Below, in pieces: positions 35,954 to 46,658 of a DNA stretch of 64,000 nucleotides. Numbering within the stretch: position 1 is the stretch's first letter; each line of letters begins with the position of its first letter. The notes beneath the pieces are model-generated. The model was not told the DNA's origin. It did no database searches and was given only the letters and a program-made list of their open reading frames with translations. The translations under genes and the position numbers were made by a program. The DNA is from Candidatus Sumerlaeales bacterium (lineage in GTDB: Bacteria; Sumerlaeota; Sumerlaeia; Sumerlaeales; Sumerlaeaceae), in assembly GCA_038243585.1 (NCBI GenBank), contig JBBSQY010000002.1, positions 64,001 to 128,000 on the forward strand, in the 5' to 3' direction.

Positions 35954-36053
35954 ATTGCGATGTCTCCTTCTGATCGAGCAGCTTCGGGCCTATGCAAAGG
36001 AACAGTAACGCGTCTGGTAAGGCTGTAAACTATTGATCTCAATGGGTTTGAAT

Positions 36054-36077
36054 TTGGTAGCGACGAGTGGAGTTGAA
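36054..36077 (-). repeat. att direct repeat (duplicated 3' end of tRNA-Met), distal copy
   Basis: TTGGTAGCGACGAGTGGAGTTGAA, identical to 46581-46604. Confidence 0.95.
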
Positions 36078-36187: not shown

Positions 36188-36251
36188 GCCACATATACGC
36201 CTTAGAGACTTTACCCTATTTACCCTGTTTACCCTGTTCTAAAAACAATGC
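36188..36251. repeat. Sub-terminal imperfect inverted repeat, left copy
   Basis: CACATATACGCCTTAGAGACTTTACCCTATTTACCCTGTTTACCCTGTT aligns to the reverse complement of 46379-46442. Confidence 0.8.
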
Positions 36252-37385
36252 CAGCCGGTTAATGACGACGCGCCTTAGCCGGTCCGGATCCATAAGCTCC
36301 GCATAATGCTTATCTGTCATCCCTGCCGGTGCATGGCCTATATAAGCGCCATAGTCTGACAATGCGACGTCGGCCTTTACGCATAGGTTAACGAATGTTT
36401 TTCTAACGTCCTTCGGATCCATGTCGGCGTATGCGGGAATGTCGAAATCCGCCGCCACGCTATTGAGTAGCCGGCGCAGGCTTAATCCAACGCTGTGGTG
36501 GGTCGCGTCAAATCCCTCGGTGTTCGTGACTACCAGCGCCTCAGGGGCCATCCTAGACAGCTCAGCGGCCATCCATGCAGAGACTGCCGGCAGGATAGGA
36601 ATGGATCGCGCACGATACTTGTTTTTCGACAGCTTAATGGATAGCATATTGCTTGTGAAATCGAAGTCGCCGACGCGCAGGCGGATAATTTCTTTAATGT
36701 TACACCCTACCAAACAGCCTAGAACAACAGCCCGTGGGATCGCACGGTTGACGCGCATATTAGCGCATCCCCATAAAAGCGCCACCTGGTCAGCGTTTAT
36801 GTAGTTTTTCTCCGGTGTGGATTCATCGGTTAAAAATCCGCTCTGGATTACCAGGGGATAGTACCGGCGCGGATCTGATCGTGCCTGGTTCTTTGCCGTC
36901 ATAGTCAGAACGCCGATGTAGTGCCGTATGCTCTTTGGCTTTAATCCCTGGTCATGTAGAAATTTGACATAATCCTGTGCTACCGCGCCCGTGACTTTTT
37001 CCCAATATGATATGTTGGGGCCATCACCTTCTAACCAGTTTATGAAGTATTTTTCAAACCTGCGAAGATCCGCACGACGGTCATCTGTTTTGGCTCTGGC
37101 GTGCGTAATGGCTTTTCTGATAGCGTCGCCGATTAGGTCGCCGTCCATCCGGTCCATAACATGAGAAAAGCGGGAGCCTAGAATGTCCCTAAGCTCCCGC
37201 GCCATCTTCTTCACTTCATCCGGCAGGGTAATTCCTGCCAGTTGCTTTTCCGTCTCCGCTTTTATGCCGGTGCTCTTCGACAGCCGTTTACCGGCAGTAT
37301 CACGATAAACTAAATAGTAGCGCTTATCACTACTCTGGATCCTTATAGTAACGGCTCCGATTTTTTCCACTGTTCGCAGGGTCAT
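36216..37385 (-). CDS. Tyrosine recombinase / integrase
   Basis: IIRLRVGDFDF, SKNKYRARSIP, DVRKTF, IGHAPAGMTDKHY; adjacent to the att repeat. Confidence 0.9.
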   Translation of the reverse strand: MTLRTVEKIGAVTIRIQSSDKRYYLVYRDTAGKRLSKSTGIKAETEKQLAGITLPDEVKKMARELRDILGSRFSHVMDRMDGDLIGDAIRKAITHARAKTDDRRADLRRFEKYFINWLEGDGPNISYWEKVTGAVAQDYVKFLHDQGLKPKSIRHYIGVLTMTAKNQARSDPRRYYPLVIQSGFLTDESTPEKNYINADQVALLWGCANMRVNRAIPRAVVLGCLVGCNIKEIIRLRVGDFDFTSNMLSIKLSKNKYRARSIPILPAVSAWMAAELSRMAPEALVVTNTEGFDATHHSVGLSLRRLLNSVAADFDIPAYADMDPKDVRKTFVNLCVKADVALSDYGAYIGHAPAGMTDKHYAELMDPDRLRRVVINRLALFLEQGKQGK

Positions 37386-37617
37386 GCTTTTTTTGTTTCA
37401 TCCTGACTGGTTTTAAGTCAATACTGGTTTTGGGATGGAGCAGGCTTTCCACTCTCTGCCGGCCTATTTCGTCCAAATAGTGAATGATGGTCCCGCCCCA
37501 ATACCTGCCCCGAATGGTAGCCAGGGGCGCACATTCGTCAGCGAGTTTGCGGCCTAGCATTATTTCGAGCTCAGCAGCGCCATACCAGCGGTATGGGCGA
37601 ATGATAGGTTTAAGCAT
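37330..37617 (-). CDS. Small putative excisionase/HTH-like protein
   Basis: 95 aa, basic, overlaps the primase stop and the integrase start; function inferred from position. Confidence 0.5.
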   Translation of the reverse strand: MLKPIIRPYRWYGAAELEIMLGRKLADECAPLATIRGRYWGGTIIHYLDEIGRQRVESLLHPKTSIDLKPVRMKQKKHDPANSGKNRSRYYKDPE

Positions 37618-40123
37618 GATTCACCGCCTGGGGGTTCATGTGGTACACTCTGGCAGGCTTCTTTGCCCCTGGTGATAGAATCTCCGCTTTGCGCAGGATG
37701 TGGCGCTCTTCAAGGTAGGAAAGCGCCTCGCTGAATATGCTTTCGTTTTTCATGCGCTTCTTTACCCGGTCCCACAAATCCGTGTGGCGGATGGGTGATT
37801 CTCCGGTACTGCCGGCAAGGTTGCGGATGTGCCTAAGTGCATATTTAGCATTCGACTGGACCGGGAGCTCCTTCACGATGCCGAGCACCTGGTCCGCACG
37901 ATACAGAAAATATGTTCCCAGCGTAATCGCGCTTTTCATCGTGTCAGCCGATATGGTCCGCCCTGCGTAATCGATGGGGAATTCTGCTACGTGCAGACAC
38001 GCCGCCAGGCGAAGGATCCTGCCGGCATGTTTAGCGCCCCACTGTGCAATGTCCTCTTCGCCGAAGTCACCCGTATCTGGGCAAAGTTTAGGCATGAAGT
38101 CTTGTCTGAAAGTACGAAATTCAGCAGCAGCGCCATCACTGAGTTTTAGGACTACACCATCGTTCGTATCATTTAGCAGGTGCGTAATTGTTTTAAGGTA
38201 TTTCTGTTTTATCGCCTCATCGATGGGGGGCGCATCTACTTTATAATTTGCAAAGTCAATGCTGCCACGCAGAAGGATATAACGCTGGATTACGCCGAGC
38301 CCTGTAAATGTGTCCTGGTTTATAACGCCGTCAAATGGCTTCGGTTGCACAAACTGCACGACAGATAAAAGTGGCGCTTCAAGTGTTTCATTCCCACCTG
38401 AAACGCGGTCCCGGACGTGCCTCTCTCCGTCATAGCATTTGGGAAATAATGTGCATGAGCTTTGCCCGTTGCTATACATCCCACCCATCACGTTAAACAG
38501 TTTGGAAGACTCAGCAGAAATAACGATCCCGCTTTCCCTGTTTTGCTTTTCGCCTAATGGCTTGAATAGTGATTCTTCGGTGAAATCCTCATATATAAGC
38601 CGCCTTGCATTCCGAGCCGGTAGGGCGTCCAATTCCGTTTCAAGGTCCGTGAGCTCCATTGCCAGCATTTTACGATCCGCAGAAGTGGACGCCTTATTTA
38701 CTTTTCGCACAACAGCCGCCTGCCGTGCGACAATTATCTTTTCTTCGTTGCCGGCAAGGATCCGCTCTTGTCTGGATTCGAGCTCATTCTGTTTTCCCCA
38801 AAGAACGGCAGGTTCTGAAATGGCTTCCAATGTCGCTGATTTTGTAGCGCCTGGGGGAAAGATTACCATCACCCATAAGTTTGTGTTTTCCTGCCAGTTT
38901 GTTTTGCCTTCAATTATCACACGCCGCTGGATCGTAGACGATAACATCCCCAACGCAATGGTCGCGGTTACTTCTACCGGCACGTTCTGTTGAACAGCCA
39001 GCTCCGCGGCGAAATCTCTTAACCAGGGTGAACCGTCGAATGACTGTAAGGGGAACGTCTCCGCGTCTTCGCCAAACATCTCACCCGGCGCTACCTGGTC
39101 AATGGATATCAGCTCCGGCCATTCCTCGACCTGGGCAACCGCCGGCTCCCATAGAACAGCTACCTTTAGGCGCTCATCATAACTCATTCCTGCCGGCTCT
39201 GGGTCGGCCAGGTCTTGGCCTTTTTCCATGCCATCGGTCGGCATGATCCGCACCCGCGTATTCATCTCATAAAGGTGTGCGGCTAGTCCGTCCATCGCAT
39301 CAGTGCCAGGCTCGTCAGCATCAGGAATTAAGAAGCCTTCAGAGTTCGCCAGTAGGCGCCAGTCTGTTTTGTTCCATGTTCCGGCGCTACCTTGCCAGGT
39401 GAGTATTAACAGATCAGGCCAGCGCTCCTGTGCGGCCTCCATTGTCTTGTGCCCTTCACATATTGCCCACGGCCTGGTATCTCCAGCAGCAATCTTGTCA
39501 GCCCCATAGAACGGCTTATTGTCCAGGCTACCGTGAAAGTGCCAGCCAGCTTTATATTTTCTGCCTTCGTGGGTGTGTTCTGTGTCGTAGTAGTAGCACG
39601 GTCTGAATTGCTTACGGTCAAACACTGGGGGATTGTCCCATCGGTAGTCATAATTGAACAGCGTGCCATCAGAATTTAAGAGGGTGTAGACGTGATCCGG
39701 CTTGCCTAATTTGTAAGCTTCTTTTGGCGGTGCAATATCTTCCGGCGGGTTACGATTTATGTTGCATATATCTGCCGGCAGGGGTGTAGTTTTGGTAATC
39801 CTTGTCGGGATACTTTTAGGTTTTGCCTCGGTTCGCGCCGGGGCAATTTCTTTTTTTGGGGGGCTTGTGTTTGTCGCTGTGTTCATCCGGTGGTTGCCTC
39901 TCAAATCGTCTCTGAAGTGGTCTGCTATTTCTTTGGTGGGGCATTTCATGGTAGTGCACTTGAACATCACATCCCCAGACTTCGCGCTATCCCATACCAG
40001 GCAGTTTAAGCCGCTGCCCTTATGGATGGGGCAATTGATCCTGTAGCAGCCTTTAGCGTCCGGTCTGGTAGATCGTGCGCTGCCGTTGCCGTACCTGTCG
40101 GCAATGTCTGCCGCGTTCATCAT
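37610..40123 (-). CDS. Replication protein: Zn finger + Toprim primase + DUF3987 (YfjI-like) domain
   Basis: CPIH...C...C; ICEGHKT and PDADEPG Toprim motifs; WQENTNLW, PPGATKS, LIYEDFTEESL, DRVSGG, GVIQRY. Confidence 0.82.
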   Translation of the reverse strand: MMNAADIADRYGNGSARSTRPDAKGCYRINCPIHKGSGLNCLVWDSAKSGDVMFKCTTMKCPTKEIADHFRDDLRGNHRMNTATNTSPPKKEIAPARTEAKPKSIPTRITKTTPLPADICNINRNPPEDIAPPKEAYKLGKPDHVYTLLNSDGTLFNYDYRWDNPPVFDRKQFRPCYYYDTEHTHEGRKYKAGWHFHGSLDNKPFYGADKIAAGDTRPWAICEGHKTMEAAQERWPDLLILTWQGSAGTWNKTDWRLLANSEGFLIPDADEPGTDAMDGLAAHLYEMNTRVRIMPTDGMEKGQDLADPEPAGMSYDERLKVAVLWEPAVAQVEEWPELISIDQVAPGEMFGEDAETFPLQSFDGSPWLRDFAAELAVQQNVPVEVTATIALGMLSSTIQRRVIIEGKTNWQENTNLWVMVIFPPGATKSATLEAISEPAVLWGKQNELESRQERILAGNEEKIIVARQAAVVRKVNKASTSADRKMLAMELTDLETELDALPARNARRLIYEDFTEESLFKPLGEKQNRESGIVISAESSKLFNVMGGMYSNGQSSCTLFPKCYDGERHVRDRVSGGNETLEAPLLSVVQFVQPKPFDGVINQDTFTGLGVIQRYILLRGSIDFANYKVDAPPIDEAIKQKYLKTITHLLNDTNDGVVLKLSDGAAAEFRTFRQDFMPKLCPDTGDFGEEDIAQWGAKHAGRILRLAACLHVAEFPIDYAGRTISADTMKSAITLGTYFLYRADQVLGIVKELPVQSNAKYALRHIRNLAGSTGESPIRHTDLWDRVKKRMKNESIFSEALSYLEERHILRKAEILSPGAKKPARVYHMNPQAVNHA

Positions 40124-40350
40124 TTCTTTTCCTCAATTCTGTAATGCCCGCCGCTGTGATTCCAGCAGTGTGATAATCGGTGGTCGGGGTCGGTGAATTC
40201 CGGCTTCGTCCCGGTGCCGCCGCCGTGTCGGTGTGGCTCTCGGCAGTAGGGGCATTGTCCTATCAGCAGCCACATACTGCTGTAACGTGACCACTCAGCC
40301 CGGCAGTAGAATACCGGCAGTTGTTCCTCGGTGTCGATGGTGGTGGTCAT
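40120..40350 (-). CDS. Small Zn-binding phage-type hypothetical protein
   Basis: CPYCREPHRHGGG...HRLSHC; 4-bp overlaps with both neighbours. Confidence 0.7.
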   Translation of the reverse strand: MTTTIDTEEQLPVFYCRAEWSRYSSMWLLIGQCPYCREPHRHGGGTGTKPEFTDPDHRLSHCWNHSGGHYRIEEKK

Positions 40351-40559
40351 CGTTCGCCACCGCCCAAACCGACAGATCCGCGACGCAGGCCCCAGCGCTC
40401 CAAGGCTTTTTCCAGTGAATCAGCATCGACGCGCCGCCGGATGCGGAAAACTGGATAATCTGGAACAGTGTTATTATGATAATCTGCCCAGTGATGAAAG
40501 GCGTTTGGACTACTGAAACCGGCAAGTTTTGCCGCCGACGTGATGGAGATCAATTTCAT
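40347..40559 (-). CDS. AlpA/excisionase-like winged-HTH protein (copy 2)
   Basis: MKLISITSAAKLAGFSSPNAFHHW...RRRVDADSLEKAL; 4-bp overlap coupling. Confidence 0.65.
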   Translation of the reverse strand: MKLISITSAAKLAGFSSPNAFHHWADYHNNTVPDYPVFRIRRRVDADSLEKALERWGLRRGSVGLGGGER

Positions 40560-40774
40560 TTGGTCGCCTCCCGCTTGCCTTGCTTTGCTGCCGAACGTGC
40601 ATGTGCTTTCCGAATGATCGCCGCCTCGATAGAATCCAAATCGACCCGGTTACCACATCTCAAAATTGGATGTGCTGGAAAATCTGCCTCGTACCGGCCA
40701 AGCCAGTTGTTAAACGAGTTCTTGCTTACATGACCCGTAAAAGCCATTGCCGCGTCTAATGAAACGAAACGCAT
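40556..40774 (-). CDS. AlpA/excisionase-like winged-HTH protein (copy 1)
   Basis: RBS CAGGAGG; MRFVSLDAAMAFTGHVSKNSFNNW...GNRVDLDSIEAAI. Confidence 0.65.
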   Translation of the reverse strand: MRFVSLDAAMAFTGHVSKNSFNNWLGRYEADFPAHPILRCGNRVDLDSIEAAIIRKAHARSAAKQGKREATK

Positions 40775-40884
40775 TATGCTGCCTCCTGTGTAACTGAAAA
40801 TTAGTTTCAACCCGCATTAACGACAGTCGGCTACAGGTGGGCGCAAAATAGTTGAAATAGTTGTGGTGGGTCGCCCGGCGGGAT

Positions 40885-41136: not shown

Positions 41137-41468
41137 AGCGCTACCGCTGTGAAAAACAGATCGGCATCAGCGTCGCGCTTCTCTATGTCATCGCGAAATT
41201 CGCACATTGATTTCAATGCGGTATCACGTCCGCTAACTACGGCATTATAGTAGTCGCTTAAGTCTTCCGAATCCATCAGCGGAATTCTAATCTGGCGAAA
41301 CAGATCATACAGAATCGTGGCAATGGGTGCAAACTTTGCCAGCATCTGCTCTTTTTCTTCCCGTGAAAAAACTGCTGAATCTATCACGATAAACTCAGGA
41401 CGTCCGAAATCAATCTGACTTTCGTTCTCTCTGTGGGTAACGGGGTTTGTTGCGTTAATCGTGGACAT
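41133..41468 (-). CDS. Hypothetical protein (111 aa)
   Basis: RBS GAAAGG upstream; first gene after the structured leader. Confidence 0.65.
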   Translation of the reverse strand: MSTINATNPVTHRENESQIDFGRPEFIVIDSAVFSREEKEQMLAKFAPIATILYDLFRQIRIPLMDSEDLSDYYNAVVSGRDTALKSMCEFRDDIEKRDADADLFFTAVAL

Positions 41469-41640
41469 AAAAAAATCAACCTTTCGATACTTCGTGGTTG
41501 ACGGAGACTGACACGCACCTTCAGGAATGCGTATAGGTCATTCGGTGTGCAATCACCGTCTTGACTCAGGCCCTGGGTTGCGCTGAACACGCTTCCTGGG
41601 GCCGCTTATTTATCCGGCATGGTCTTACTGCCGGGCGTTG
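41469..41640 (-). promoter_or_regulatory. Structured leader / attenuator-like region
   Basis: Series of hairpins ending in TCAACC...GGTTGA-TTTTTTT immediately before ATG 41468. Confidence 0.5.
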
Positions 41641-41682: not shown

Positions 41683-41859
41683 GCCACTTTAGCAGTTGCC
41701 TGCGTGTGTTTGCACCGTCGGCACATGAACGAAAGCCAGCGGGCAATGATTGGCGCGAAGATCGCCAATATGGTGCGGGGTGAAAATCAGCATACGCAAA
41801 TTTGCGGAACCATATCCCAATCCGACGCCGCTGAACATCATATCCCCATCACTTCATGA
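41683..41859 (+). pseudogene. Fragment of a phage ParB-like/methyltransferase-associated HTH gene, opposite to element transcription
   Basis: The plus frame reads LHRRHMNESQRAMIGAKIANMVRGENQHTQICGTISQSDAAE, bounded by stops at 41680-41682 and 41857-41859. Confidence 0.6.
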
Positions 41860-43331
41860 CCTGGATTCCGTTCATTCAGCGTGAAGTTAATCGTGGATTC
41901 CTGCCCGGCGCGTCCGGTATTGGCCCGGTTGGCGGCTTGCGTCGCGTGAATATCCTCATTCGACATCCCGCCTCCCTGCAACGCACCAGCACCGAATTTT
42001 GCAACCATGTCAGCCTGTAGCTTTTTATCTTTCGTGGCATCCATCGCCGTTTTACCATGCGCCCTTAACCAGTTGTCCACGACGGCATTTGTGGAAATAG
42101 CTGTCTGGTTCATCGGGTTGGCGCGGTCGCTGTCGGCCGGGTACCGCGCCGTTGTCTTCGCATCATGAGCCGCTACCTTGTCACGGTAGCCCGTTTCATT
42201 CGCAGCAAATCCAGCCGCTTTTTCGCGCGCTTTTGCAGCCATCTCATCCGCGCCGAATAAGTCATAGACATTAGCCGCAAGATTCTCCGACTTGCCCATA
42301 ACACTATTATTAAACGCCCCGGCTTTGTTGTCCAGGTTCTTAATGTCACCGGCTTTTTCAGACATCGAGGAAACCAGCGCCGCAGCATTTACAGCAGCGG
42401 TGCCCAGGAAGTCAGAAAACGCCTTCGCGTCTTGCCCCATCTCTGCCCAATCAATGCTTTTGATCGTGCCGAACAGGTCTTTGGCGCTGTCTGCAATGTT
42501 CTCTCCAAATGCTTTGGTAAACTCGTCAACACCCATCTTCGCGTCACCGCTGATATACTGCACGAAGTCCACCAATTCGCCTTTAATGACATCAAACAAG
42601 GGAGCCGTCGACGCCTGCTTCATGTTATCGAAGAATGATCCCGCCGTGCTGGATAGCCCTTCCCATGTCGACGCCATCTGCATAACCAGTTCAGGCCCCG
42701 CGCCCATTTGTTTCAGTGCAGCATTGATCAGCTCCATACCCTCGAGGCCCTGGGCTTTTAATTCTTTTATAACACTACGAGATATATCAAACCGGCTTTG
42801 TAAACTTACATAGTCCCCGCCCATAGCCTCACGGATAGAGAATGCAGCACCTTCAAGCCCCTGCGCCGGATTAAGCGCCGCCAGAACTTCCGCAGTCTTA
42901 ACCAACTTCATCAGCTCTTCGCGTGAACCCTTCGCGCTGGAAATCAGCGCTTTGCCCGCTGTGATCATCTCGCCGGTGTCGAACGGCGTAACGTCAGCTT
43001 CCGTGCGAAGATCCATTACAATCTGTTTTGCAAGCGCCGCGTCCTTCGTAAACGCTGTAAACGTCGCTGTGGCCTGCTCAATCGAACTGTTGAGCGCCAA
43101 CCCATCTTTCACCATGGAACCAAACGCGACACCCGTAGCAGCCGCCGCAACACCCGCAGCAACGCCCATCCCGGCCAGAACCTTCGCAGCCGGTGCAAAC
43201 GCTTTCGCCACAGCCCGGCCTTCAGTCATTGCGTTATTCTTAAACCGGGTGAAACCTGTTTGCGCGCTCACTATACCCGCGCGAAATTCGGCGGCGTCTA
43301 ATTTAACTTTTGCTGTGACTTCTGCGCTCAT
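41838..43331 (-). CDS. Short tail tape-measure-like protein (497 aa)
   Basis: N-terminal VTAKVKLDAAEF; SIEQATATF...EADVTPFDTGEMITAGKAL (tape-measure N-terminal motif); STWEGLSST; Ala/Gly-rich helical composition. Confidence 0.8.
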   Translation of the reverse strand: MSAEVTAKVKLDAAEFRAGIVSAQTGFTRFKNNAMTEGRAVAKAFAPAAKVLAGMGVAAGVAAAATGVAFGSMVKDGLALNSSIEQATATFTAFTKDAALAKQIVMDLRTEADVTPFDTGEMITAGKALISSAKGSREELMKLVKTAEVLAALNPAQGLEGAAFSIREAMGGDYVSLQSRFDISRSVIKELKAQGLEGMELINAALKQMGAGPELVMQMASTWEGLSSTAGSFFDNMKQASTAPLFDVIKGELVDFVQYISGDAKMGVDEFTKAFGENIADSAKDLFGTIKSIDWAEMGQDAKAFSDFLGTAAVNAAALVSSMSEKAGDIKNLDNKAGAFNNSVMGKSENLAANVYDLFGADEMAAKAREKAAGFAANETGYRDKVAAHDAKTTARYPADSDRANPMNQTAISTNAVVDNWLRAHGKTAMDATKDKKLQADMVAKFGAGALQGGGMSNEDIHATQAANRANTGRAGQESTINFTLNERNPGHEVMGI

Positions 43332-43346
43332 AACGAATTACCTTTC

Positions 43347-43490
43347 AAAATAAAAATGCCGCCTGGGGCAGAGGGATCCCAGGCGGCGATTCGCGGGGAA
43401 ACGAGCGTAAACCCGCGAAGATAAAATAAGTTGGACGACGGCTAACCCTCGCCGATTAGCCGCCGCCCGCTCTTGACGGTTTCCCATCAA
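43347..43490 (-). ncRNA. Cluster of four hairpins; the last is an intrinsic terminator upstream of the TMP gene
   Basis: Stems at 43473-43490 (GAAA loop), 43433-43468, 43390-43419 and 43358-43387, followed by ATTTTTATTTT. Confidence 0.5.
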
Positions 43491-43496
43491 ACTTTG

Positions 43497-43676
43497 TTAC
43501 CGCCTGCGTACCAGGTCAGCCAATGGATCAGGCGACCTTGCATTGTCCTGGACGCGCTGGGTGTCGATATCCGTGCCCGCGCCCAACGAGGATAAACTCG
43601 AAAATCGCTGGACAGGTTCCGCCGATTCGTCATCAGCAGGTTTTGGCTCTTCTATGTCTTGGTAAAAATCTCTCAT
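43497..43676 (-). CDS. Unannotated 59-aa acidic protein, putative mini-scaffold
   Basis: ATG 43676 with GGAAAG upstream; MRDFYQDIEEPKPADDESAEPVQRFSSLSSLGAGTDIDTQRVQDNARSPDPLADLVRRR*; shorter than any ORF in the track. Confidence 0.65.
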   Translation of the reverse strand: MRDFYQDIEEPKPADDESAEPVQRFSSLSSLGAGTDIDTQRVQDNARSPDPLADLVRRR

Positions 43677-43687
43677 AATTTAATCTT

Positions 43688-43837
43688 TCCGAGTAGACGG
43701 ACGCCTCTTCCAAGACGCCCGCCCAACCCTATTTCGGAGCTATGGACGCAACGACAACGGCCATATTTTGACCGCCGGGCTACGCGGTTGAAGGTGTGCC
43801 CGGCGGCCTGATTCGTTCGCAGCAGGCAAGCGAATCA
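43688..43837 (-). ncRNA. Cluster of hairpins downstream of the capsid gene
   Basis: Stems at 43809-43837, 43770-43808, 43741-43765 and 43688-43738 (14-bp G-U-rich stem, GGAA loop). Confidence 0.5.
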
Positions 43838-43844
43838 AACGTGA

Positions 43845-44855
43845 TTACGGAGTCTCATCAGCGCTTATAAGGATAGAAGCCGGATAGCGGTCAGCCTCTA
43901 ACGGCTGTGCCACTGTGACCGGGTTCGCCGTACAAAAGCCAATTCGCGCGACCGCTTTAATTGCGATAGAGTCAGCTTGCATGAGATTCAGCATAATGTT
44001 TCCCGCCAAATCTTGGATCACGCCATCTTTGTGAACGCTGATATGGAGTTCCTCACGGACGCCCACCAGGTGTTTTGTGCGGTCGAACATGATCATTTCA
44101 ATGTCGGACGCGTCGGGGTTCTGTGGCGGGAAAACTCCGTCGACCCCGAAGGAAATTTCACGACCAAACAACCGGCCTTCCAGTGCCTCGCCGCTCTGAA
44201 GTTCCTCGGGAATGAAAAGCGGGCGTCCGAGCGTATCGGTTTCCGACATTAAATCGTACTCGAACCCCGGCCTAGCGATAGCGCCATTTAACTGGAAACC
44301 ATCCCGGCGCGACATCTTTAGCACGTTCATAATGTCCGTGCGTAGACCACCATTAGCCGCCGCCGTGTCGATAACCGTCACGTTACCGGCGCTCATCGCA
44401 CCAGCAGCAACATGAGCCGGCCAGACAATCGGCTTTTCAATTCCGAAGAAAATTGCCTTATCAATTGCCATCGCGATACTCTGGGCAATCGCCGGAATTA
44501 TTTCTTCCGTGAGATTGATCCCTCCAGCCTGAATGTCAGACATCAGCCGGCGCGGAAATGGTATGATGACGGCAATGTCGGCCACGTTCATGTCAATATT
44601 GGCCCATGATACATCGCTCGTCTGGATAAGCCGGGTATCATCTTCAGGTGTGCCGGTTTGGGTTAGCCAATAAGATTTCGGCAGCGCCGTCATAACCGGG
44701 AAAGATTTGTTCTGCGTCAAAATTGGAACGTGCTTGAAGAACCGCAATGCGGCCGACTGTTGCGTCGCCATCTTGAAAATTTTGTTGGAATGTTCGCATG
44801 GAACAAGGCCACCGGCAGAGGTTGCGTTGCGGTCTGTGATATCGTTGAAAGCCAT
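43845..44855 (-). CDS. Phage major capsid protein (HK97 fold, no delta domain)
   Basis: GGLVP..SNKIF, FPVMTALPKSYW, IAVIIPF, AIDKAIFFG..KP..WP, NLMQADSIAIKAVARIGF; RBS TAAGGAG. Confidence 0.9.
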   Translation of the reverse strand: MAFNDITDRNATSAGGLVPCEHSNKIFKMATQQSAALRFFKHVPILTQNKSFPVMTALPKSYWLTQTGTPEDDTRLIQTSDVSWANIDMNVADIAVIIPFPRRLMSDIQAGGINLTEEIIPAIAQSIAMAIDKAIFFGIEKPIVWPAHVAAGAMSAGNVTVIDTAAANGGLRTDIMNVLKMSRRDGFQLNGAIARPGFEYDLMSETDTLGRPLFIPEELQSGEALEGRLFGREISFGVDGVFPPQNPDASDIEMIMFDRTKHLVGVREELHISVHKDGVIQDLAGNIMLNLMQADSIAIKAVARIGFCTANPVTVAQPLEADRYPASILISADETP

Positions 44856-44946: not shown

Positions 44947-45459
44947 TTAACGACAGCTTGCTTCCAGGTCGCTCCCAATAATCCGATTTTGCATCATATC
45001 TGATAGTATTTCCGGCTGTGCAAATAAAGCCGTCCCGAAATCCTGTAGGCTTGCGAAAAGAGCACCCTCACGACGCCACGCACGACGCCGCATTTTCAGA
45101 ATATCCATCGCCTTATTTTTCGCGGATCCGAGAAAAAACGAATTCACGCTGCCGCTAAATTCAAACCCGGCAACCGGTAACCCGGTTCGCGGATTGAGAC
45201 GCCGGCATTGTTTAGGTTTTGCGCTCTCGAGTAGGTGCATCAAAATTTCATTTCGTGCGTCGTCTTGATCCTCCTGCGACAGTGAAACCTTGTACGCCCA
45301 TTGCTTCGCCAGTGGTAGCAGCAGGGCCGCAACGTCAGCCAGCAGGAATTCATTCTCTGGATCCCGCCGCAGCGCCACAATAGCGGCCTCCAGGTCAATG
45401 GCCTGTTGTGCGAAATCAATCACTGCGTGATGGCTACGGGGAGCGCAAACAGCAGGCAT
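44947..45459 (-). CDS. Sigma-70 region-2-like protein lacking region 4
   Basis: EDQDDARNEILMHLLE...FSGSVNSFFLGSAKNKAMDILKMRRR; RBS AGAAAGGA before ATG 45459. Confidence 0.6.
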   Translation of the reverse strand: MPAVCAPRSHHAVIDFAQQAIDLEAAIVALRRDPENEFLLADVAALLLPLAKQWAYKVSLSQEDQDDARNEILMHLLESAKPKQCRRLNPRTGLPVAGFEFSGSVNSFFLGSAKNKAMDILKMRRRAWRREGALFASLQDFGTALFAQPEILSDMMQNRIIGSDLEASCR

Positions 45460-45540
45460 AAGCAAATCCTTTCTTGTGTAAATGCTTACCCGTACCCGCC
45501 GCTTTCATGCAAGGTGAATCCGACAGTCAAGAGAAAAAAA

Positions 45541-46146
45541 TTATGCTTTCACCGGCGGGGCATCGCCCATCTTTTCAGGCATATAGTCGCTGAAGTCCAT
45601 CGTATCGCCGACGCATCCAGTTTCTACCCACTCCCTGGGCGGCAAACCAACATGGACGAACGTGATCGGGGTCTCCGTGTCATCCTTCGCCACAAGTTCC
45701 TGGTAGGCCTGAAAATCTTTGCTCAGCCGTTGGTCATAACTAATCCGGGCCTCGAGTAGCTTCCGTTTTTCCGATGTGTAAAAGCGCTTATCCGCCATTG
45801 TCTCAGCATCAGCCAGGCATTGATCAAGACGAAGGGCCTCCACATCCAGCGCCACAAGCGTGTTTTCGTGCCGATCCAGCATGAAAGCCAGCCGCGCCTT
45901 GCCACTGGATAGACTCTCAGCCAGGTTCACCGGATCGCCCTCGGCAATAGCCAGAACAATCGCCGGTGTATGCGAATGTACCCTTGCCGTAGTCTTACCC
46001 ACCGGCGGCTCATCGCCACGAACCCGCGCACGGTACCGCCGTTTACTGTCAGCCCGGCATTTCTTGCAATCGCCCGCAGCATAACGCTCTGAGGTGCCAC
46101 ACTTCGCGCAAATCTTGTCATTATCCATGCCAGGTATTAACGCCAT
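45541..46146 (-). CDS. Zn-finger / coiled-coil protein, possible terminase small subunit
   Basis: CAKC...CKKC, basic patch, coiled-coil core, C-terminal beta strand PITFVHVG; first gene of the structural module. Confidence 0.5.
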   Translation of the reverse strand: MALIPGMDNDKICAKCGTSERYAAGDCKKCRADSKRRYRARVRGDEPPVGKTTARVHSHTPAIVLAIAEGDPVNLAESLSSGKARLAFMLDRHENTLVALDVEALRLDQCLADAETMADKRFYTSEKRKLLEARISYDQRLSKDFQAYQELVAKDDTETPITFVHVGLPPREWVETGCVGDTMDFSDYMPEKMGDAPPVKA

Positions 46147-46378: not shown

Positions 46379-46442
46379 GCGTTGGTTTAGCAATAGGGTA
46401 AATAGGGTAAACAGGGGAACTCTCTTAAAGCGTATATGTGAC
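46379..46442. repeat. Sub-terminal imperfect inverted repeat, right copy
   Basis: AATAGGGTAAATAGGGTAAACAGGGGAACTCTCTTAAAGCGTATATGTG; its reverse complement matches 36188-36251. Confidence 0.8.
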
Positions 46443-46581
46443 ATCACCACATACGCCCTACACCCAGTTTACACCCAGTTGTTCGTGGTGTGGTGGGTGT
46501 ATCTTGCCTGTACCTTCAATGTGGTTAAAGTGGTTATCGCTTGATATAGCTGGGGATCAGGTAGTTGGGTGATAGGGAAAT

Positions 46582-46658
46582 TGGTAGCGACGAGTGGAGT
46601 TGAACCACTGACCTAAGGGTTATGAGTCCTTCGCTCTAACCACCTGAGCTACGCCGCC
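46582..46658 (-). tRNA. tRNA-Met(CAT), elongator; integration target
   Basis: GGCGGCGTAGCTCAGGTGGTTAGAGCGAAGGACTCATAACCCTTAGGTCAGTGGTTCAACTCCACTCGTCGCTACCA; G2-C71 and C3-G70 favour Met over Ile2. Confidence 0.93.

Follow-up and report, generated by a model that had tools for sequence, protein, structure and literature searches.

The integrated element and its capsid locus

The window, that is, the whole 64,000-nucleotide stretch analysed, carries an element of 10,527 bp (repeat start to repeat start) that is bounded by 28-bp direct repeats and integrated at a tRNA-Met gene. The features that bear on its capsid locus are the following:

36050-36077: att direct repeat, left end, 28-bp repeat
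36216-37385, minus strand: tyrosine integrase (PHROG and Pfam matches)
37610-40123, minus strand: primase/helicase, DUF3987 (PHROG and Pfam matches)
41838-43331, minus strand: tape-measure-like protein, 497 aa (7 of 50,697 phage records match, all tape measure, best E 3e-9; no PHROG match)
43347-43493, minus strand: downstream array of four hairpins, the last terminator-like (z -6.18; structure kept in a related element)
43497-43676, minus strand: candidate mini-scaffold ORF, 59 aa (residues 1-38 acidic coil with SLGAG at 30-34; helices predicted at 39-46 and 51-58)
43500-43532, minus strand: PDPLADLVRRR, residues 49-59 of this ORF (matches the capsid-binding helix 191-201 of the 80alpha scaffold; no hook after it)
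43677-43691, minus strand: Shine-Dalgarno (SD)-like GGAAAG about 8 nt before the ATG of the ORF (start region AU-rich and weakly folded)
43695-43837, minus strand: upstream four-hairpin array, separating the ORF from the capsid stop (z -3.66 for the minus strand and -1.42 for the plus strand)
43845-44855, minus strand: major capsid protein, 336 aa (HK97 fold, PF05065, phrog_10, no delta domain)
44947-45465, minus strand: 172-aa ORF upstream of the capsid gene, in the usual scaffold position (weak sigma-region-2/regulator similarity, no scaffold match)
45541-46146, minus strand: 201-aa ORF whose N-terminus has a Cys motif (weak matches to endonuclease VII/HNH; candidate packaging role)
46577-46604: att direct repeat, right end, at the 3' end of tRNA-Met (46582-46658)

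PHROG and Pfam searches of the 16 ORFs of the element give no portal, large terminase, protease or tail tube, and no ORF matches a head-tail adaptor or a stopper. The Atlas search places the 201-aa ORF only in unnamed clusters under 0.9, and the element DNA has no useful match in the other genomes (75 searched). A 62-nt inverted repeat with TTTACCCT units lies just inside both att sites at 36190-36251 and 46379-46440, possibly representing integrase arm sites or iterons. At 40347-40810, two ORFs of 84 and 70 aa are tandem paralogues with about 32% identity and are probably excisionase-like. A second satellite-like element of the same genome (G000:C6:91379-98636) has an integrase, a 299-aa ORF that looks capsid-like by eye and, before it, an acidic 207-aa scaffold-like ORF; a 180-nt stretch of it is 74% identical to the window around 41459-41637. 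An integrase with 39% identity to that of the element, cut by a contig end (G000:C75:9784-10432), may be a sign of a third, unassembled element.

The capsid protein and its clade

The capsid protein starts in register with its family, and its structural model has a pLDDT of 90. Since residue 20 already lies within the HK97 fold, a delta domain is lacking; register and model thus agree with the first-pass annotation of this DNA on this point. The protein is nearest to the capsids of Muddy and Bridgette, and the family profile matches the 80alpha capsid at E 1e-40. Together with P0002-P0004, to which it is 48-54% identical, it forms a clade with a support of 1.0, and none of the sampled phage capsids exceeds about 36% identity to it. 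P0002-P0004 are single Logan proteins that come without genomic context, so that conservation of the 59-aa ORF rests on one loose contig end. Scans for loci of close capsid relatives returned two distant phage loci and otherwise nothing. A helper prophage of this capsid family was not found in the own genome (89.7% complete), where PF05065 matches this element alone, and among 74 other genomes of the phylum the capsid profile gives a single match, weak and partial, in one genome.

A short ORF between two hairpin arrays

The ORF at 43497-43676 runs on the minus strand from an ATG to a TAA and encodes MRDFY...SSLGAG...DPLADLVRRR. An in-frame stop two codons before the ATG means that it is not extendable upstream. 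Its coordinates, strand, length, SLGAG motif and DPLADLVRRR ending are all as given by the first-pass annotation, which also placed it directly downstream of the capsid gene; it does lie downstream without adjoining that gene, being 168 nt after the capsid stop with four hairpins in the gap. The product was described there as acidic and likely disordered. The acidity holds (pI 4.4, D+E 22%), and the disorder applies to residues 1-38 only, which are coil in a single-sequence AlphaFold model of low global confidence (pTM 0.19) that has two helices at 39-46 and 51-58. The hydrophobic moment is highest in the predicted C-terminal helix, and no run free of Pro and Gly is longer than 14 aa. The SLGAG sequence may resemble encapsulin cargo peptides.

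The ORF occupies the unfolded gap between the two arrays, each of which folds more strongly on the minus strand. The upstream array (43695-43837) is G-U rich on the coding strand. Rfam finds only the two tRNAs above threshold, neither array being among its matches, and a hairpin motif search of viral contigs gave 0 matches. The SD-like site has a duplex energy of -5.6 kcal/mol against a generic anti-SD sequence, compared with +0.1 to -10.3 for 12 other genes of the element. When the 203-nt gap between the arrays is shuffled, an ATG ORF of at least 59 codons arises in 39 of 5,000 trials; when the entire 513-nt interval is shuffled, it arises in 1,602 of 5,000, so that ORF length alone is weak evidence. 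The codon score falls between those of genes and shadow frames: among 1,200 true gene windows 6% are lower, and among 4,491 shadow frames 19% are higher. It is ambiguous as a sign of coding, and three other small genes of the element have similarly intermediate scores. Readthrough from the ORF into the in-frame 50-codon ORF at 43338-43490 was considered and rejected because the latter has the worst codon score and takes four 1-nt indels in a relative.

A related element

The relative is one 555-nt contig of depth 4.5 from sequencing run X1, which is possibly the source of this genome, and belongs to a different element. Its counterpart of the downstream array (43347-43493) differs by 17 substitutions and 4 gaps. 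Eight of the 11 listed substitutions are unpaired, two make a compensatory change from a C-G to an A-U pair, and one turns A-U into G-U. All four indels are unpaired, though 59% of the region is paired, and none of the 15 listed changes breaks a pair. Since the changes spare the pairs, sequencing errors are unlikely. The array is also better conserved in sequence than the adjacent coding DNA, and by this pattern of change it is a structured RNA conserved on the coding strand.

In the 30 letters that follow the array, the relative reads xCA-L-R-D-A-I-N-R-R-stop, as against P-L-A-D-L-V-R-R-R-stop in the ORF. The stop lies at most 2 nt from that of the ORF, and 10 of the 29 compared bases differ with no indel; the change in the Asp codon is silent, and Val is replaced by Ile. 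This single short observation favours a conserved coding end in which the hydrophobic face of the putative helix is kept. The X1 tail fits scaffold tails at a fixed register (72 of 9,810 small ORF ends do as well), and the fit is not significant when the register floats (848-1,052 of 9,809); Asn stands at a position held by Arg in 72 of 84 scaffolds. Conservation in related elements, which the first-pass annotation had proposed as a check, is thus seen as a similar tail and stop in one contig only, at a fixed register and not at a floating one. The ORF is probably translated.

The gene after the array of the relative starts M-T-T-I-H with its own SD-like site, unlike the tape-measure gene here, which starts MSAEV. 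The M-T-T-I-H start loosely resembles the start MSTIN of a 111-aa ORF. The tape-measure gene may be a variable module.

The C-terminal helix compared with scaffold tails

The last 16 residues of the 80alpha scaffold form an 11-residue helix that lies on the capsid N-arm via L194, I197, A198 and K201, followed by a hook in which R202 and I203 are essential, as described in PMC5644958; its C-terminus reads GGDSF...PQNLAEIARQKRIIKN. Two sets of scaffolds were collected from loci of the capsid family. The first comprised 80 loci, 67 of which had an upstream ORF, giving 54 distinct sequences and, after removal of L065 (wrong frame), 53. The second comprised 50 loci, 41 with an upstream ORF, and gave 31 distinct sequences after removal of L119, L120 (HNH gene) and L137 (wrong frame). 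Family scaffolds are 156-285 aa long (median 189). Those upstream of the nearest phage capsids have a Gly motif, a linker and D-M-N-x-L-I-R-x-x, usually followed by A-G-x-G, and the D-x-N-x-x-I-R-R type of ending that the first-pass annotation named is therefore real, in the form D-M-N-x-L-I-R-x-x-A-G. The second set includes variants such as V-S-N-L-L-R-E-Q, and one member (L086) stops 8 residues after its Met.

Residues 49-59 of the ORF align without gaps to PQNLAEIARQK of the 80alpha scaffold with a BLOSUM62 score of 25. In this comparison, which was picked post hoc with helix limits taken from PMC5644958 and with 80alpha in no training set, the ends of 2 of 9,809 small and of 2 of 2,224 long host ORFs score at least 25, as do 16 of 50,000 shuffles and 2 of 53 family scaffolds. 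When the ORF is compared with the 53 scaffold helices one at a time, its empirical P value is below 0.05 in 27 cases and below 0.01 in 17, with a median of 0.043. Profiles of 53-84 family tails give the ORF a P of about 0.01, as 86-124 of 9,809 small ORFs and about 1% of shuffles score as well. The ORF beats about 19 of 31 held-out scaffold tails and, on the first profile, the 80alpha tail itself, and in leave-one-out scoring just 5 of 84 real tails fall below it. A local HMM gives it 1.8 bits (E 1.7) and does not single it out within the element, and a full-length scaffold profile gives 0.2 bit.

An amphipathic C-terminal helix of the form hydrophobe-x-x-hydrophobe-hydrophobe-R is predicted in the ORF, and the near-invariant M-N of scaffold tails (59 and 56 of 84) is L-A there. 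A Gly motif [DSNR][LIVF]GxG, chosen post hoc, precedes the helix in the ORF and occurs in 8 of 53 scaffolds, the 80alpha scaffold carrying GGDSF; none of the 9,809 small ORFs combines it with an equally good helix. The distance from motif to helix is 17 residues in the ORF versus about 10-13 in scaffolds sharing this motif form. From the first helix hydrophobe, the ORF runs on for 8 residues to its end; an end as early as this is found in 2 of 84 family scaffolds, and 43 of the 84 end at 12. It stops at the equivalent of K201, and the hook of 4-5 residues (RIIK or AGxG) that would follow the helix is absent. Neither a scaffold-like coiled-coil body nor a length of 150-290 aa is found in the 59-aa product, and the family scaffolds are encoded upstream of the capsid gene, whereas the ORF lies downstream. 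The resemblance between the ORF tail and scaffold tails is therefore above chance by these scores, but modest. The likeness to scaffold endings that had been noticed by eye stands in so far as it exceeds chance and is better with 80alpha, and it falls short at the missing hook; alignment with the C-termini of genes upstream of capsid homologues is weakly positive by profile and does not stand out by local HMM.

Residue 257 of the capsid (window position about 44085) is the counterpart of the 80alpha hook-contact residue G247 and is Phe in P0001-P0004, compared with Gly in 111 of 132 aligned capsids. Co-evolution of hook loss with the capsid was rejected: among 83 pairs, all six non-Gly capsids with a known scaffold have normal tails (11-13), and three short-tail cases have Gly.

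Search for a scaffold and for homologues of the ORF

None of the 16 ORFs of the element matches a scaffold PHROG, whereas real scaffolds used as positive controls did so in three of three cases. Nor does the profile of the 53 family scaffolds give any match below E 0.5 among the 202 six-frame segments of the element, or below E 5 among 65,540 genome segments. The earlier statement that a full-length scaffold gene is missing is borne out for the element by both methods.

Homologues of the ORF, of near or longer length, were not found in a search of 5.8 billion proteins, and its exact sequence is absent from the protein collection. None occurs among 50,697 phages, the Atlas gives no usable match, and no real one was found in 74 other genomes of the phylum, the weak matches in two of these (G010, G049) being shadow frames of housekeeping genes. 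Behind phage capsid genes, 3 of 256 small downstream ORFs from 78 loci reach its tail score, which is the chance rate. In these phages, the gene behind the capsid gene commonly encodes a small acidic protein with G[FY]xG and [YH][TS]xxG motifs (35 such proteins, L002-L081). A profile of these 35 gives the ORF 0.1 bit, so that it is no member of that group.

Comparison with known systems

The 80alpha scaffold gp46 (PDB 6B0X) and the scaffolds of the Muddy/Bridgette type serve the same capsid family and share with the ORF an acidic N-terminus, a Gly motif and a terminal helix. However, gp46 has 206 aa as against 59, and the ORF lacks the coiled-coil body and the hook and lies downstream, not upstream. 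SaPI1 CpmB (72 aa) is, like the ORF, small and satellite-encoded, and its L61/L64/A65 stand in the register of L52/L55/V56 of the ORF (Table 2 of PMC5644958). According to that paper, CpmB bends the lattice as a dimer straddling capsomers; it combines an RIIK hook with a helical dimer domain at its N-terminus, depends on CpmA and targets the helper capsid. None of these features was found for the ORF, which, in contrast to CpmB, stands next to a capsid gene of its own element. No ORF among the 16 matches CpmA in PHROGs or Pfam. The parallel with CpmB drawn by the first-pass annotation breaks down at the hook, which is common to CpmB and the 80alpha scaffold. On the tested features of hook, length and position, the ORF belongs neither to the 80alpha-type scaffolds nor to CpmB; its product would act like the capsid-binding tail of either protein, without being a CpmB.

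Two further staphylococcal proteins are comparable by description. Rcm of SaPIpT1028 redirects head assembly from inside the shell, but is larger, multi-helical and directed at the helper capsid, according to PMC12409344; Ccm of SaPIbov5 (PMC8569155), a capsid homologue, is reported to redirect assembly for a cos-type helper. The element also resembles the EPIPs of Mycolicibacterium aichiense (PMC12822802; Alyssa1, OR387110), which are about 11 kb long and, like the element, carry an integrase, their own capsid and a tape-measure gene and no portal or tail tube. The EPIPs have TerS, a head-tail adaptor, a stopper and a serine integrase, whereas the element has a tyrosine integrase and no adaptor or stopper match. 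Alyssa1 encodes a 156-aa scaffold upstream of its capsid gene, in contrast to the downstream candidate here. The two capsids are distantly related (E 1.6e-12), and tblastn of 13 element proteins against Alyssa1 gives a sole match of 22 residues (E 0.002). Portal-less mini viral genomes, as described in PMC13669383, are about 9 kb long with an integrase, a sigma factor and a helicase; capsid and scaffold are their sole structural genes, apart from one that has a tape measure. Unlike the element, they come from gut samples and their capsids are encapsulin-enriched. The element is no cf-PICI, which encodes the whole head and packaging set of portal, protease and terminases (PMC12409344), since it has no portal, protease or TerL match.

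Both scaffolds of small size in satellites (CpmB, Rcm) and satellites that pair a capsid of their own with a full scaffold (EPIPs, portal-less mini genomes) have already been described. A hook-less scaffold of about 60 residues behind a satellite's own capsid gene was not found in the main texts of open PubMed Central and bioRxiv papers; the EPIP supplement may list short scaffolds.

Proposed function and alternative explanations

We propose, with a probability of roughly 0.5, that the ORF encodes a real, hook-less mini-scaffold for the element's own capsid. The capsid family requires a separate scaffold, as stated in PMC5744158 and PMC5644958, and none was found in the element, which counts in favour of this proposal; so do the SD-like site, the open start region and the fit to the unfolded gap. 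If the ORF is translated, its product would probably bind the scaffold site, mostly on the element's own capsid. The capsid operon would supply the peptide, and inside the procapsid the last helix of the peptide would attach to the inner N-arm of that capsid in place of the absent scaffold, with L52, L55, V56 and R59 in the places of 80alpha L194, I197, A198 and K201. The acidic coil would point into the shell and depart as DNA enters, the hairpin arrays would set the ratio of scaffold to capsid, and a helper phage would provide portal, large terminase and tail. The order of acidic N-terminus, Gly motif and helix hints at descent from a full-length scaffold whose coiled coil was lost, and not at the independent origin proposed in the first-pass annotation.

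Sizing of heads for about 10 kb, as the first-pass annotation had it, is the weakest step, since nothing like the helical dimer domain of CpmB is predicted for the ORF. The divergent capsid, and not the peptide, may determine head size, and a satellite that has such a capsid of its own may need no size switch.

It is unlikely that the ORF is no gene or a decaying remnant, namely a chance ORF in a spacer between RNA arrays, with the capsid borrowing the scaffold of a helper. This explanation would account for the lack of homologues in the protein, phage and phylum searches and of the exact sequence in the protein collection, for the frequency of equally long ORFs in whole-interval shuffles, for the inconclusive codon score and for an ORF end that diverges faster than the RNA alongside. 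It sits poorly with the relative, in which the stop, a frame of 9 codons and L-x-D-x-hydrophobe-x-R-R are preserved despite 10 of 29 changed bases while the neighbouring 50-codon frame at 43338-43490 takes four 1-nt indels, and with the SD-like site and the rarity of such an ORF in shuffles of the 203-nt gap. A slightly less probable alternative is a real small protein with another job, such as a minor capsid or cement protein, a regulator or a factor that interferes with a helper, whose likeness to the scaffold helix is incidental. Small acidic accessory genes often stand behind the capsid gene in the family (the 35 collected above; Bridgette gp8), and basic amphipathic C-terminal helices are common, with about 1% of ORF ends fitting the profile. 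Yet the accessory-protein profile barely scores the ORF, a scaffold-dependent capsid would be left without a scaffold, and the 80alpha match would go unexplained.

The same helix evidence is shared by a CpmB-like size switch or decoy, a peptide that competes with the scaffold of a helper, either for that helper's capsid or for a shell of mixed composition where the element capsid is Ccm-like, thereby shrinking or blocking helper heads. CpmB and Rcm act by scaffold competition (PMC5644958 and PMC12409344), and since the element has no portal or large terminase match, it must meet the head machinery of a helper. This is nevertheless the least probable of the explanations considered, and quite improbable in itself, because the ORF shares an operon with the capsid gene of the element itself, the low-confidence model predicts no dimer domain, and the genome searches found no helper of the capsid family beyond the weak partial match in one genome of the phylum. 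The hook-less mini-scaffold acting on the element's own capsid remains the reading that we prefer.

Implications for minimal head assembly

A wider hypothesis, which we put forward only tentatively and regard as rather doubtful, is that a rare satellite clade, represented by the P0001-P0004 capsids, makes small heads of its own by means of a 59-residue scaffold that has shrunk to a single docking helix and an acidic tether, without hook or dimer domain, its gene moved behind the capsid gene and dosed by two four-hairpin arrays. If this is true, the clade would define the minimum for a separate scaffold and give a two-gene small-shell system. If the mini-scaffold is real, co-expression of the two genes can ask whether a docking helix alone drives assembly of an HK97-fold shell and whether the scaffold or the capsid sets head size, and small capsid-only elements that seemingly have no scaffold may hide one below gene-caller length.
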